26,841 bases of DNA from a virus (IMGVR_UViG_2802429248_000008:1-26841), one strand, 5' to 3'. Shown: positions 6,412-10,793, counted from the stretch's first letter. Translations and numbers: made by a program. Notes: generated by a model from the sequence alone, not told the origin.

Positions 6412-6972
6412 ATGCATAACTTCAAACTCAAACCAATGGGTACACCTGGTGTGGCTCCGGCACATGTAAAACCATGGACACAACAGGAAGATGAAATGCT
6501 TATCTCGCTTTATCCGGAGTGCAACACGCGCCAGATAACCGAACAAATTCAACGAACCCATGACGCAGTTATGCACCGACTTAGTTTTTTACGTGATCGT
6601 GGATTGATTGGTCGCAAGAAAAAGACTCTGAGTGCAAAGGAGATCGCCTTTCTCATTGAAAACCGCCACACCAGAACGGCGCAGGAACTGGCCGCCGAGG
6701 TGGGATGCACCCATCGCACCGTACAAGCGCACCTGAATAAACGTGGTTATAGCCTGCGAAAATGCGGAGAACTCCACCACCTGACCAGATACAGCGATCA
6801 CCTGGTGGAACTGGTGACTGAACTACGTGATGAGCAGCACATGACGTTCGCCATGATAGCAAAACACATTAATCACACACTGCAAATAAAAGTCACCACT
6901 CGTACAGCACGTTTTCTTTACGGTCGCCGCACCGCCGCCGACGCCGTGCTGTACGAGCTATTACCAAACTGA
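6412..6972 (+). CDS. DNA-binding protein with an N-terminal SANT/Myb-like motif and repeated HTH-like units
   Basis: 186 aa. WTQQEDEMLISLY is Myb-like. Three HTH-like segments follow: TRQITEQIQRTHDAVMHRL, TAQELAAEVGCTHRTVQAHL and TFAMIAKHINHTL. Confidence 0.6.
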   Translation: MHNFKLKPMGTPGVAPAHVKPWTQQEDEMLISLYPECNTRQITEQIQRTHDAVMHRLSFLRDRGLIGRKKKTLSAKEIAFLIENRHTRTAQELAAEVGCTHRTVQAHLNKRGYSLRKCGELHHLTRYSDHLVELVTELRDEQHMTFAMIAKHINHTLQIKVTTRTARFLYGRRTAADAVLYELLPN

Positions 6973-7092
6973 GTAATCATCATGCACACACAAAAAAACC
7001 GCTTGCCATGCCGCAATCAGTCAGGTTACATTTCCGCTGCACCTCATAAAACGGGTGCCGGGATTCTCAACCTGCTGACAAACGAAGCGCAC

Positions 7093-7113
7093 AACCGCGC
7101 CAGCGGTTTTTTT
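7093..7113 (+). terminator. Rho-independent terminator inside the non-coding gap
   Basis: AACCGC (7093-7098), loop GCCA, GCGGTT (7103-7108), with a T run extending to 7113. Confidence 0.6.
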
Positions 7114-7154
7114 GTGCGTACTGTATTGCCACGTCTTTTTCGCATCAGAATTAT

Positions 7155-7235
7155 GGTGGGGCGTACGGGGCCGACTTCGGTCGGGCCGGTTTCTTCGTTT
7201 GCCGGTGTTGAGAACCCCGTACGTCTCGCCACCCC
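7155..7235 (+). ncRNA. Candidate structured antisense RNA with c4-like (P1/P7 immI-type) architecture
   Basis: Perfect 9-bp stem 7162-7170/7215-7223 and outer 5-bp stem 7155-7159/7229-7233. Inner hairpin CCGAC-UUCG-GUCGG (7171-7184). Second hairpin 7185-7190/7201-7206 with a 10-nt loop. The loop and the single-stranded 7207-7214 are complementary to duplicated targets at 7063-7087 and 7240-7284. No credible ORF is present. Confidence 0.55.
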
Positions 7236-7295
7236 GAGATTCTCAACTCTGGTTGGTGAGTATCCAAAAACTCACAAACGAAGAGGCCAAACACC

Positions 7296-7526
7296 ATGGC
7301 AAACCGCAAACAGCACCGCGCTATCGCGGAGCGTCGTCACATCCAGACTGAAATCAACCGCAGACTTTTCCGCGCATCACGCGTCGCGCAGATCATGCAC
7401 ATCAATATGCTGCATGAGCGCAGCCACGCGCTATCGAACATCTATTCAGCCTCTATTTTCAGCTATCTGGCGGATGATCTGCGCGAGCTTCAGCGGCTCA
7501 TCCTGCAGCAAAACAAACTCCATTAA
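7296..7526 (+). CDS. Small basic protein; likely target of the antisense RNA (occupies the position of Icd in the P1 module)
   Basis: 76-aa ORF. Its GAAGAGG SD (7280-7286) is overlapped by the 10-nt target CAAACGAAGA (7275-7284). Confidence 0.6.
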   Translation: MANRKQHRAIAERRHIQTEINRRLFRASRVAQIMHINMLHERSHALSNIYSASIFSYLADDLRELQRLILQQNKLH

Positions 7527-7598
7527 TTCTGGTTCCGGGCCTTTCCTGCACCTTGCGGCGGGAGGCCTTCGCACATCTGTAACAAGAGGATTGCCGCA

Positions 7599-7964
7599 AT
7601 GATTCTCGCCAACGACTTTCTTGAATACCTGCTCAACACAGAGCGCGATCTTGCCGTTCGCGTGCGTGACCGTTATGACATGTACCTGAAATCCCTGCCT
7701 GTACCGCAGCTCGCTGACGGAAAGATTGTTATTGATGGCCGCTACATGATTGACAGCCACGAGGGAAATTACAGGCTTTACCGCATTGAAGGCGGCACCC
7801 CGTCCGTTATTGGCATTTACCAGCGCCCATCCTCTGCGATCGTCGATGTGATTGCAGACAGCATCCGCATCACACATCGCTATGCCGACACAGAAGACAC
7901 CGTGCTGGAAATTCAGCGGCTGGCTGCCGTTTGCCGTGACACCCTGAACGGTATGACGAAGTAA
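7599..7964 (+). CDS. Hypothetical early protein upstream of the replication gene
   Basis: 121-aa ORF with an AAGAGGA SD 9 nt upstream. Confidence 0.6.
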   Translation: MILANDFLEYLLNTERDLAVRVRDRYDMYLKSLPVPQLADGKIVIDGRYMIDSHEGNYRLYRIEGGTPSVIGIYQRPSSAIVDVIADSIRITHRYADTEDTVLEIQRLAAVCRDTLNGMTK

Positions 7965-7970
7965 ATCAGT

Positions 7971-10793
7971 ATGACGACAGAGTACATCAGGGACTGGCAA
8001 CAACCGCGCCACGCAGTAGGGCGTGAAGGAACGGGGATCCCCGCACCTGAATCCGCGCTTTCCTCCTGGCTGGATGCCTACCGGGCAGAGAACGAGCGCC
8101 GCCAGGAAAAGGCTGATGCGGTGTTCTCCGCCACGCCACTGGGCAACCTGATTAATAAAAGCCTGGACGCACAGGAAAAACAGGACAAAACCATCACTCT
8201 GGCAGGAGAAGCCAGAAGACAGGCACGCGGCGCGGTGGATGAAGCCATGGCCTCGCTGCGCCTGCTGCCGTCCTATCTGCGCGATCCGCTTATTCGCCAC
8301 CTCTCCTTCCTGCGCAAAAAACAGGAAGCCGATCGCCGGAAAGGCAAAAAGAGCTGGCAGGCAGAACGCTATGCACGCGGAACCCTGCGCAAGATATTCG
8401 ATCGCATTAACCGTGCCGACAGTCGCTGGCTGACACCGGGTTATCGCTCCCTTGCCGGACGCGAACGCCTGGACGATTTGCTTTACCTGCCGCAGCTCAA
8501 CAAACACCAGATACAGACGCTGGCCACCATGACGGCGGCGATGTTCAGCAGCACCTTCGAAAAACTCTGCGATGGCTTTGGCGCGACTGATGGTGAGCTG
8601 ACCATGGAGGTGGCACTGAAGGCGTATCAGATGCTGGCCCGCATGGCGTTACACCTGCACACCGTGCCGCCGCATTACGAAGCGCTGACAACAGACAAAG
8701 ACCGGAGGAACGAACCGGACACGGAGCTGCTGCCGGGCGCAATCCTTCGTCTGACCTGTGCGGAATGGTGGAAACGCAAACTGTGGCTGTTACGTTGCGA
8801 GTGGCGGGAAGAACAACTCCGTGCCGCCTGTCTGGTTTCCAGAAAAACATCGCCCTATCTGAGCCAGGACGCGTTAAGCGAGTTTCGCGCACAGCGCGAG
8901 AAAACACGCGATTTTCTGAAAAGTTTCATGCTGGAAAACGAAGACGGGTTCACGATTGATCTCGAGACAGTGTATTACGCGGGAGTAAGTAACCCGGTTC
9001 ACCGTAAGGCAGAAATGATGGCCACCATGAAGGGGCTGGAACTTCTGGCCGAAGCCCGTGGCGACAAAGCGGTGTTTCTGACTGTCACCTGCCCGTCAAA
9101 ATACCACGCCACAACAGAGAACGGTCATCCGAACCCCAGATGGAACGGGGCCACCATGCGCGACTCCAGCGATTACCTAGTTAACACGTTTTTTGCGGCG
9201 GTCCGCAAAAAACTGAACCGCGACGGTCTTCGCTGGTATGGCATCCGCACGGTGGAGCCTCACCATGACGGCACTGTGCACTGGCATATGATGGTCTTTG
9301 CACATCCGGAAGAAATCGACAGCATCGTGGCCATCACCCGCGATATTGCCATTCAGGAAGACCGCCACGAGCTGGGCAATGATATTACTCCGCGCTTTAA
9401 GGTGGAGTATGTCGACGGCTCAAAAGGCACACCGACCAGCTATATCGCCACCTACATCGGAAAAAACCTGGACAGCCGCGCCGTGGATGGCATCGACCCG
9501 AAAACGGGCAAGCCACGCGTTGACCACGAAACCGGAAAATCAATGGCCGAGAGCGTGGAGCGCGCCATCGGCTGGGCGCGCCTTCACCGCGTCCGCCAGT
9601 TCCAGTTCTTTGGCATCCCCTCCCGTCAGGTGTGGCGTGAACTGCGCCGCCTTGCCAGCCAGATGGCACGCAACCCGGAAGGCCCGCAACGGCTGAAGGA
9701 TGACGCAATGGATGCGGTACTCGCTGCCGCTGATGCCGGGTGTTTTGCCTCCTACATTGAAAAACAGGGTGGCGTACTTGTTCCACGCAAGGACTACCTG
9801 ATTCGCACCGCCTACGACCTCGCAGATGAGCTGAACGATTACGGCGAACAGGGCGTACAGATTTACGGGATCTGGTCACCACTCATCGGGGAATCCTCCC
9901 GTGTGTGCACGCACCCGGATAACTGGAAGCTGGTAAGACGTAAACCGGAACAGGAAGGTAGCGCCCACGAAAATGGTTTTGACCTTCAGGGCGGCCCTGC
10001 CGCCCCTTGGACCCGTGGCAATAACTGTCCCCGTGTACAGGAAACGGACAACAACGGGACAGAACAGCCGGAAGAACGGCCAGCACCGTGGCCGCAGCTT
10101 CCTGACGGCATTGAAGTGAACGAATGGATGCGCTCACTGAAACGGCACGAACGCCGGGCGCTGATGCGTTCGCTTCGTGACAAACAGGCAAAAAACAGCA
10201 GTGATGAAATGCAGAGCTGGACACAGAGCCGCAAACAGCAGCGGCCTTTGCCTGATAACCACGAATTACTCGCTAGAGAATGGCGGGAGTCTGCTGAATC
10301 TCTCGGCCTGCATATCGGTGAACAACAAATGCAGCACCTGTTACGGGGCGGCAGTCTGTACGTTGACGGCAGCATCATTGCACCGCAGGGATTTGAAATT
10401 GTACGCAAACCGGATACCCGCCCGGACAGCCGAATCACGCAGCTCTGGCAGCGCCTGAGCCGTAATCACGGTGTAAGCAGCACGGAGATCCGCCATAACC
10501 CGGTCGCCAGCTATCTGGCACAGCTGGGGGCATCAGACCCTGAAGCCGCCGCACGCCTGGCATCCACACTTCAGCAGGACCAGAACACCATGAAAACACC
10601 CGTTACCGTGCTTTCTGACATGCTGCGCGCCATCCGCGACGCAGAGCACGCACAGAGAATCAGTGAAACCACTGAACGCGCCCACCGCAAAGCAGACCTG
10701 CTGCGGGGTGGCCTGACCAGTGGAAACAAAAAACAGACAGAAACGGGACTCACGAATCCCGTAAATGAGCAAAAAACGCGCAGCGATATATGA
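7971..10793 (+). CDS. A: Rolling-circle replication initiator endonuclease (P2 gpA family), C-terminally extended
   Basis: 940 aa. HUH motif HHDGTVHWHMMVF at 9261-9299. Paired catalytic tyrosines YIATYIGKN at 9441-9467. Positioned as P2 A. Confidence 0.9.
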   Translation: MTTEYIRDWQQPRHAVGREGTGIPAPESALSSWLDAYRAENERRQEKADAVFSATPLGNLINKSLDAQEKQDKTITLAGEARRQARGAVDEAMASLRLLPSYLRDPLIRHLSFLRKKQEADRRKGKKSWQAERYARGTLRKIFDRINRADSRWLTPGYRSLAGRERLDDLLYLPQLNKHQIQTLATMTAAMFSSTFEKLCDGFGATDGELTMEVALKAYQMLARMALHLHTVPPHYEALTTDKDRRNEPDTELLPGAILRLTCAEWWKRKLWLLRCEWREEQLRAACLVSRKTSPYLSQDALSEFRAQREKTRDFLKSFMLENEDGFTIDLETVYYAGVSNPVHRKAEMMATMKGLELLAEARGDKAVFLTVTCPSKYHATTENGHPNPRWNGATMRDSSDYLVNTFFAAVRKKLNRDGLRWYGIRTVEPHHDGTVHWHMMVFAHPEEIDSIVAITRDIAIQEDRHELGNDITPRFKVEYVDGSKGTPTSYIATYIGKNLDSRAVDGIDPKTGKPRVDHETGKSMAESVERAIGWARLHRVRQFQFFGIPSRQVWRELRRLASQMARNPEGPQRLKDDAMDAVLAAADAGCFASYIEKQGGVLVPRKDYLIRTAYDLADELNDYGEQGVQIYGIWSPLIGESSRVCTHPDNWKLVRRKPEQEGSAHENGFDLQGGPAAPWTRGNNCPRVQETDNNGTEQPEERPAPWPQLPDGIEVNEWMRSLKRHERRALMRSLRDKQAKNSSDEMQSWTQSRKQQRPLPDNHELLAREWRESAESLGLHIGEQQMQHLLRGGSLYVDGSIIAPQGFEIVRKPDTRPDSRITQLWQRLSRNHGVSSTEIRHNPVASYLAQLGASDPEAAARLASTLQQDQNTMKTPVTVLSDMLRAIRDAEHAQRISETTERAHRKADLLRGGLTSGNKKQTETGLTNPVNEQKTRSDI

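Follow-up and report, generated by a model that had tools for sequence, protein, structure and literature searches.

In the immI region of phages P1 and P7 the c4 antisense RNA, with its a1/b1 and a2/b2 targets, controls an antirepressor operon. The equivalence of the IsrK RNA with the seqA RNA of P4, and of C4 with the P4 CI RNA, has already been published (PMC3632133, PMC4825925). In Gifsy-1 the read-through transcript is acted on in trans by the short IsrK, whose sequence complements that of a C4-like RNA, STnc1160 (PMC4825925). In P4 itself the eta gene starts 5' of the internal promoter PLE and, in the part of PMC10111431 that summarises Forti et al. (1999), translation of eta prevents the termination of transcripts that come from the upstream promoter. 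The cassette described here controls an antirepressor and precedes a phage replication gene, and the passage of early transcripts across the IsrK terminator therefore bears on prophage induction.

The DNA analysed, a viral stretch of 26,841 nucleotides (IMGVR_UViG_2802429248_000008) that we refer to as the window, carries, within the early operon of a P2-family prophage resembling P88, an RNA immunity cassette of the P4 type. Its parts are ordered as isrK promoter, IsrK/seqA RNA with an intrinsic terminator, C4/CI RNA, a target copy at a ribosome-binding site and an epsilon-like derepression gene. Closest to the prophage are P88 and other members of Xuanwuvirus (Peduoviridae), whose cassette sits in the rightward early operon beginning at cox, and the DNA of the module is matched in 1184 of 5426 complete E. 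coli genomes, O157 and ST131 prophages included. The last upstream gene of the early operon (6412-6972, + strand) encodes an HTH DNA-binding protein of 186 residues, with weak Pfam HTH matches and a PHROG transcriptional regulator match at 5e-31. The gene is co-directional with the cassette, its stop codon lies 10 nt 5' of the ATG of the next open reading frame, and a consensus scan found no terminator-like site on the + strand between this gene and position 6989.

The IsrK-type small RNA, a homologue of the P4 seqA RNA, is a full-length match to Rfam RF01394 (7039-7113, + strand; model positions 1-77, 62.0 bits against a cut-off of 50), a family laid out as two 5' hairpins, a linker and a terminator hairpin with a U tail. 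It holds the upstream target copies ATTCTCAAC (within 7059-7071) and CAAACGAAG (7079-7087), both complementary to the loops of C4. The intrinsic terminator predicted by a terminator scan at 7093-7113 (+ strand) coincides with the 3' hairpin of the isrK model and consists of an AACCGC-GCCA-GCGGTT hairpin (7093-7108; a 6-bp stem with four GC pairs and a 4-nt loop) followed by seven T residues in the DNA, the U7 of the transcript. The candidate isrK promoter (7003-7031, + strand) has its -35 element, TTGCCA, at 7003-7008 and its -10 element, TTACAT, at 7026-7031; the consensus scan listed it as TTGCCA-18-TACATT at 7003-7032, which is equivalent to TTGCCA-17-TTACAT. Both elements are conserved in relatives, and the 5' end of the Rfam match (7039) fits a start 7-8 nt past the candidate -10, at 7038-7039. 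The original prediction had placed a promoter here and had derived from it an RNA of about 75 nt that ends at 7113 and carries the upstream target copy; the scan finds that promoter, the isrK match begins where its transcript would, and the full-length Rfam match fits the RNA. Its idea of a sponge or decoy is reasonable and agrees with the published biology of IsrK/seqA, of which it was already a part (PMC4825925).

The structured RNA that had been foreseen downstream is C4 (Rfam RF01695, a full-length match at 7149-7236 on the + strand; 79.2 bits against a cut-off of 45). According to a repeat search, its loops TCTTCGTTTG (7192-7201) and GTTGAGAACCCCG (7207-7219) are complementary to the upstream as well as to the downstream target copies. 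The latter lie at 7235-7284 (+ strand), where direct and inverted repeats place them at 7235-7252 and 7275-7284, and the second of them overlaps the Shine-Dalgarno sequence of the P4-epsilon-like derepression (antirepressor) gene. This gene (7296-7526, + strand, 76 residues) matches Pfam PF25738, Derepression, with 31.2 bits against a cut-off of 27 and PHROG 3688 at 5e-44; its P88 counterpart is annotated 'derepression protein', and it is the regulated gene of the cassette. In six related phages with four specificity types the target sites and the C4 loops co-vary, all three copies changing together in an otherwise constant module, and the 127 P2-like loci (three from genomes, the others collected in two pattern scans of viral contigs) hold at least 12 distinct second-site sequences. 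The locus thus combines two loops, two target pairs, an overlap with the ribosome-binding site and co-variation, as befits a C4/CI-type antisense immunity system. Further downstream, at 7599-10793 on the + strand, Pfam and the P88 annotation identify orf121 (121 residues) and then a P2 gpA-type replication endonuclease (7971-10793; Phage_GPA at 1e-129), and both must be reached by early transcripts.

A second site resembling a promoter, TTGCCA-17-AATTAT at 7126-7154, had been proposed to serve the structured RNA. The consensus scan does find it, but its -35 element varies among relatives (TTGCCA, TCGCCA, TCGTCA, CTGTCA), and its -10 element (AATTAT, 7149-7154) adjoins the first base of the C4 stem, so that a transcript starting near 7161 would lose seven bases of that stem. 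In Gifsy-1, moreover, the C4-like RNA is lost when the isrK promoter is deleted (PMC4825925). A separate promoter for C4 is therefore doubtful and unproven.

With P1 and P7, compared through the Rfam families and general knowledge, the locus shares a two-loop antisense RNA directed at one target pair upstream and another downstream, the latter lying over a ribosome-binding site; unlike in P1 and P7, the upstream copy scores as isrK, with its own promoter and terminator, and not as c4-a1b1. The likeness to the IsrK/orf45/anrP region of Gifsy-1 in Salmonella, judged from the published description, extends to an isrK RNA with a promoter of its own, a terminator that is partly read through, a C4-like RNA downstream and the control of an antirepressor (PMC4825925), but Gifsy-1 is lambdoid and has the antiterminator gene antQ upstream. 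Closest in organisation is P4, which has an internal constitutive promoter (PLE, of which the isrK promoter is the analogue) inside a long open reading frame that starts upstream, followed by an isrK-type RNA with a hairpin and U7, a C4-type CI RNA, a target copy at the ribosome-binding site, an epsilon-family gene and replication genes. Unlike that of P4, the present cassette precedes gpA in a helper-like phage of the P2 type. The system belongs to the known IsrK/seqA and C4/CI immunity family.

The annotation of such loci is uneven. In the E. coli AST240 contig (2552-2815) the NCBI pipeline calls the isrK-C4 stretch a pseudogene, a truncated 'ash family protein'; most other genomes carry no annotation across it, and none of the records examined has an RNA gene annotated there. 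A primase-bearing, satellite-like contig (L108, 2766-3429) carries tandem cassettes, namely isrK and C4 followed by c4-a1b1 and a second C4. One contig labelled Vagococcus sp. (NZ_JBQPOM010000071.1) contains an enterobacterial P88-type cassette whose derepression protein is 87% identical to that of the window, and the label may reflect contamination or a mislabelled assembly.

An eta/ash-like open reading frame of 206 codons (6982-7602, + strand), apparent from the list of open reading frames and from the conservation of its frame, spans the isrK promoter, IsrK, its terminator, C4 and, in another frame, the whole derepression gene, and finishes at orf121 with an ATGA overlap. Among 121 P2-like loci, representing 90 distinct sequences, 119 have no stop codon in this frame over at least 520 nt. 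An in-frame ATG is found 5-11 nt 5' of the left arm of the inverted repeat described below in 118 of the 127 loci (7 nt 5' of it in the window, at 6982), and this holds across about seven distinct start-codon contexts whose upstream sequences are otherwise unrelated; in the remaining nine loci the frame is fused to the upstream gene. The Pfam family Phage_ASH (PF10554) stays below its cut-off here (20.9 bits against 26, residues 16-87), whereas its homologues in satellites score 44 and 117 bits, again across the stretch that encodes the RNAs. Most lambdoid and satellite loci likewise keep this frame free of stop codons through isrK-C4, and across C4 it is identical to the frame of P4 eta. That the frame stays open in nearly all loci, keeps its ATG and recurs elsewhere with Phage_ASH matches indicates that the open reading frame is not an accident, and by position it is the analogue of P4 eta. 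Similarity to the P4 Eta protein is confined to the stretch that encodes C4, and whereas eta and epsilon of P4 overlap by only 8 nt, the eta-like frame here overlaps the entire epsilon-like gene. Homology to P88 begins exactly at the left arm because a gene starts there. Both overlapping frames are conserved across the 90 distinct sequences, and the eta-like frame and the derepression gene may be a true overlapping gene pair. Insertions and deletions in the target copies keep the frame of the overlapping reading frame; the window carries one of +1 and one of +2 nt near 7268-7290.

A further difference from P4 is a long-range inverted repeat, which the lambdoid isrK loci sampled also lack and which the literature searched does not mention; nothing useful was found in the literature on RNA immunity of P88 and Xuanwuvirus or on the transcript ends of O157 P2-like prophages. 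By direct reading of the sequence, CACAAAAAAACCGCT (6989-7003) and AGCGGTTTTTTTGTG (7102-7116) are exact reverse complements of one another, and the repeat search extends the pair to 6986-7006 and 7099-7119 (21 nt, 90% complementarity). The 15-nt repeat flanks the isrK promoter and the body of IsrK within the cassette. It is the sole perfect inverted repeat of at least 15 nt with arms no more than 200 nt apart in the 26.8-kb window, in which no other motif matches the arms; simulated sequences of the same dinucleotide content give an expectation of 0.007 such 15-mers per window. The original prediction of a perfect long-range repeat thus holds, as does its statement that the right arm comprises the descending arm and U tract of the terminator at 7093-7113, which the terminator scan confirms.

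The two arms are working parts of two separate devices. The right arm (7102-7116, + strand) starts at the final loop base of the IsrK terminator and continues through its descending arm and U tract to the GTG that follows. The left arm (6989-7003, + strand), which contains A7 and CCGC, falls at roughly -47 to -37 with respect to the isrK promoter and supplies codons 3-8 of the eta-like frame, which in turn encloses that promoter. If transcription starts at 7039, its A7 run spans about -47 to -41. The proximal subsite of the UP element reportedly has the consensus AAAAAARNR at -46 to -38, and we take the A-tract of the left arm to occupy this position at the isrK promoter. The left arm was also considered as a terminator of the minus strand, but no complementary ascending arm precedes it on that strand and the scan found no terminator there.

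Two more perfect inverted repeats, of 13 nt each, occur at 6899-6911/6945-6957 and 7384-7396/7474-7486, where 0.13 would be expected per window. Together with the 15-mer these are all the perfect repeats of at least 13 nt in the 26.8 kb, and a span of 600 bp holds all three. The 13-mers are not conserved, the first being missing from the homologous upstream genes of other phages and the second having one or two mismatches in P88 and other relatives.

The 15-nt repeat is strongly conserved. The core of the left arm, ACAAAAACCGCTTGC, is invariant in 16 representatives of P2-like lineages, and throughout the 127 loci the left arm is kept apart from three kinds of variant, namely a C for A in the run, a C to T change of the first base and one change in the tail. 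The lineage A' has the left arm ACACAAAAACCGCT, which puts a C.U mismatch inside the A:U run; locus L053 combines the same C-for-A change with a different tail that weakens pairing further, and L173 carries the C to T change, which still allows a U.G pair in RNA and breaks the repeat in DNA. The right arm is invariant in all loci except L053. All four bases occur at loop position 7101, and a C to A variant there lengthens the perfect complementarity to 17-18 bp. The three loci found by a genome scan with the derepression protein all have the exact repeat, and the repeat is kept where gpA identity drops to 33-53% and where the promoter spacer and upstream genes differ. In rare variants, seen in two viral contigs, the ascending arm of the terminator is altered, AACCGC becoming AGCCGC in L147 and AGGCGC in L174, with left and descending arms unchanged; the latter change weakens the local hairpin, and the left arm of L174 would be a better partner of the descending arm than the local one.

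Outside the P2-like clade the picture differs. Strong complementarity, meaning a duplex energy of at most -17 kcal/mol that reaches or passes the limit of 500 shuffles, is seen only in loci with the derepression gene and gpA downstream. P4 shows no significant complementarity between promoter-upstream sequence and terminator (-10.5, p 0.08), the large lambdoid isrK groups lie within the shuffle range at about -8.7, and a subgroup of Stx phages reaches -14.7 (p about 0.01), a signal that is lost when the same promoter joins another terminator. The repeat was accordingly rejected as a general property of isrK loci, since lambdoid, Stx, satellite and P4 loci fall within the range of the shuffles apart from this marginal subgroup. 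Each arm also occurs without the other: A7-CCGCT-TG stands beside a terminator with a non-complementary stem in primase-bearing satellites (L108, L064), and the AACCGCG...GCGGTTTTTTT terminator is common in lambdoid loci that have no left arm. When promoter-upstream segments were ranked against all 23 terminator types, no preference for the cognate terminator emerged outside the P2-like clade, and 47 combinations of flanks gave no excess of complementarity beyond the conserved core (all p > 0.13). An apparent signal for an extended helix came from the CAC/GTG of the core and was gone once this was excluded. The invariance of loop base A7102 was likewise set aside as evidence of pairing: the loops GCCA, GCAA, GCTA and GCGA all keep the first G and last A, in the manner of a GNNA-type tetraloop. 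Judged by these comparisons, the predicted long-range helix is a clade-specific and strongly conserved feature, free of compensatory change, each of whose arms has a reason of its own to be conserved; that selection acts on the complementarity itself stands at roughly even odds.

Folding gives the repeat a prominent place in the RNA. Both the minimum free energy and the centroid fold contain the long-range helix, for 6980-7125 (z = -5.3) as for 6960-7300. When a transcript from 6900 is folded by partition function, the pairs of the helix reach a probability of about 0.9 once AGCGG (7102-7106) is exposed, and the pairs of the local hairpin drop to about zero; in a transcript from 7039 the local hairpin reaches only about 0.3, the segment 7069-7077 competing as well. 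Masking 6967-7001, which mimics a ribosome on the AUG at 6982, abolishes the long-range helix and restores the weak local hairpin. These calculations show the helix to be the predicted dominant structure in naked read-in RNA, on the understanding that they describe equilibrium and ignore kinetics, in which the local hairpin normally wins. Intrinsic termination is driven by a stem that abuts the U tract. The GCGG of the descending arm is paired in every modelled case (P 0.77-1.0), and a GC stem therefore still adjoins the U tract whichever partner is used. By its modelled architecture the helix is an alternative, stronger terminator stem, not an antiterminator.

These results, together with the P4 precedent, suggest a picture in which naked read-in RNA is closed by the helix and translated RNA passes, to which as a whole we assign a probability of about 0.4. 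Only RNA from the upstream early promoter would contain the left arm. On read-in RNA free of ribosomes this arm would out-compete the weak local ascending arm and close over a long range around the IsrK domain, setting the GC stem and A:U pairs able to extract the U tract beside the point of termination and burying +8 to +22 of the eta-like frame; the expected effect is to favour the termination or closure of untranslated read-in RNA, not to suppress it. A ribosome initiating on the eta-like frame or translating it would exclude the helix, and early transcripts under translation would get past the IsrK terminator and the region controlled by C4, as shown for P4 eta. By analogy with P4, early transcripts more plausibly pass through translation of the eta-like frame than through antitermination. 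Transcripts from the internal promoter, with neither arm nor AUG, would yield short IsrK and, by some read-through, C4. In favour of this mechanism count the Rfam and Pfam identities, the co-varying sites, the P4-like layout, the clade-conserved repeat, the folds, the eta-like frame and the P4 precedent. Against it count the absence of compensatory change, the C.U mismatch of A' and L053, the satellite A7-CCGCT with its non-complementary terminator, the absence of the repeat from P4 and of any extension past the core, the fact that both arms could be conserved independently, and the equilibrium nature of the folding; the helix may also form rarely if upstream RNA is always translated.

A sharper version holds that the first codons of the eta-like frame double as a second, long-range ascending arm of the IsrK terminator, about 100 nt away, which would sense ribosomes and act in a promoter-specific manner, possibly with RNase III processing as well. 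Were it true, a ribosome at the start of the frame and the terminator-closing helix would be mutually exclusive, and untranslated early transcripts would be cut off at IsrK. We regard this specific form as rather unlikely. The locus bears a likeness to lambda sib and to classical attenuators, in which one RNA stretch folds according to its promoter of origin or the presence of a ribosome; in attenuators, however, the alternative helix takes the ascending arm and forms first, whereas here it takes the descending arm, and the sib helix needs sequence 3' of the terminator whereas this one uses sequence 5' of the promoter. A working long-range helix would give a well-known RNA immunity system an additional layer that is promoter-specific and gated by translation; an idle one would leave an ordinary overlap between a promoter A-tract and a terminator U tract inside a known module.

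That the repeat is such a by-product without consequence is a serious contender, if short of even odds. An A-tract at a promoter and frame start would simply face the U tract of a terminator, eight extra complementary flank bases would have arisen once in an ancestor, and they would persist only since each arm is conserved for its own job. In line with this, a tract of five to seven A residues 4-5 nt 5' of the -35 element recurs in several unrelated types of isrK promoter, whatever the terminator. Left motif and terminator also occur apart, as in L108 and L064, and outside the clade cognate pairing is no better than non-cognate. Arms mismatched in A' and L053, the lack of compensatory change and of a selected extension of the helix also speak for this explanation, and the repeat was picked as the most extreme among many windows. 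It is harder pressed by the rarity of the repeat (0.007 expected per window), by a match that runs eight flank bases beyond the A/T runs, and by the confinement of strong complementarity to one genomic context. The codons AAC CGC, moreover, are free of synonymous change throughout the 127 loci, next to a spacer that does diverge.

Processing in the manner of lambda sib is improbable. Here a helix of about 19-21 bp, formed only in read-in RNA, would be cut by RNase III, splitting the early mRNA from the replication genes, freeing an IsrK decoy, or both. RNase III uses helices of about two turns, and the 19 pairs over 21 positions (20 in the variant with A at 7101) come near this size; promoter-proximal transcripts would lack the arm, as the logic of sib demands. 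The perfect run, however, is only 15 bp and rich in A:U, no context shows a selected extension, and the helices of A' and L053 are interrupted.

The original prediction had cast the left arm as an RNA antiterminator acting in cis, which in read-through transcripts would sequester the descending arm and the U tract. Part of this stands, in that the arm does compete with the terminator: it is found only in RNA initiated upstream, and in the equilibrium folds it displaces the local ascending arm. A stem that abuts the U tract nevertheless remains, for the competing helix shares its descending arm with the terminator and stops at the same point before the U tract, so that the stem is replaced and not removed. 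Known attenuator antiterminators sequester the ascending arm and form before the terminator. Here the ascending arm is not sequestered, and the helix cannot form first: left arm and ascending arm are of the same sense, and the 3' partner of the left arm (7102-7116) is transcribed last, with the U tract held in the RNA:DNA hybrid at the point of decision. P2-like phages are not known to employ an N-type antiterminator; this, the position of gpA downstream and the restriction of the repeat to the context of derepression gene and gpA are what recommend the model. Covariation does not support it, the arms are mismatched in some loci, and a translation-based bypass is available. The repeat is real and conserved in the P2-like group, but an antiterminator role is without support, and suppression of the terminator by the left arm is very improbable.

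A role at the level of DNA, as paired regulator sites or as an invertible or cruciform element around the isrK promoter, is scarcely credible: the arms do form a perfect palindromic pair about the promoter, but the 98-bp segment has one orientation relative to both flanks in all 127 P2-like loci, which also disposes of an invertible or MITE-like element, no invertase gene is seen nearby, the window holds no matching motif elsewhere, and the change in L173 preserves RNA pairing at the expense of the DNA repeat.

A separate structural element lies at the far end of the module, where a hairpin at about 7538-7569 (GGCCTTTCCTG ... CGGGAGGCC) is conserved between the stop codon of the derepression gene and the start of orf121. 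It is not followed by a U tract, and in divergent relatives it shows one compensatory pair (G-C to A-U) together with several GU/GC changes.
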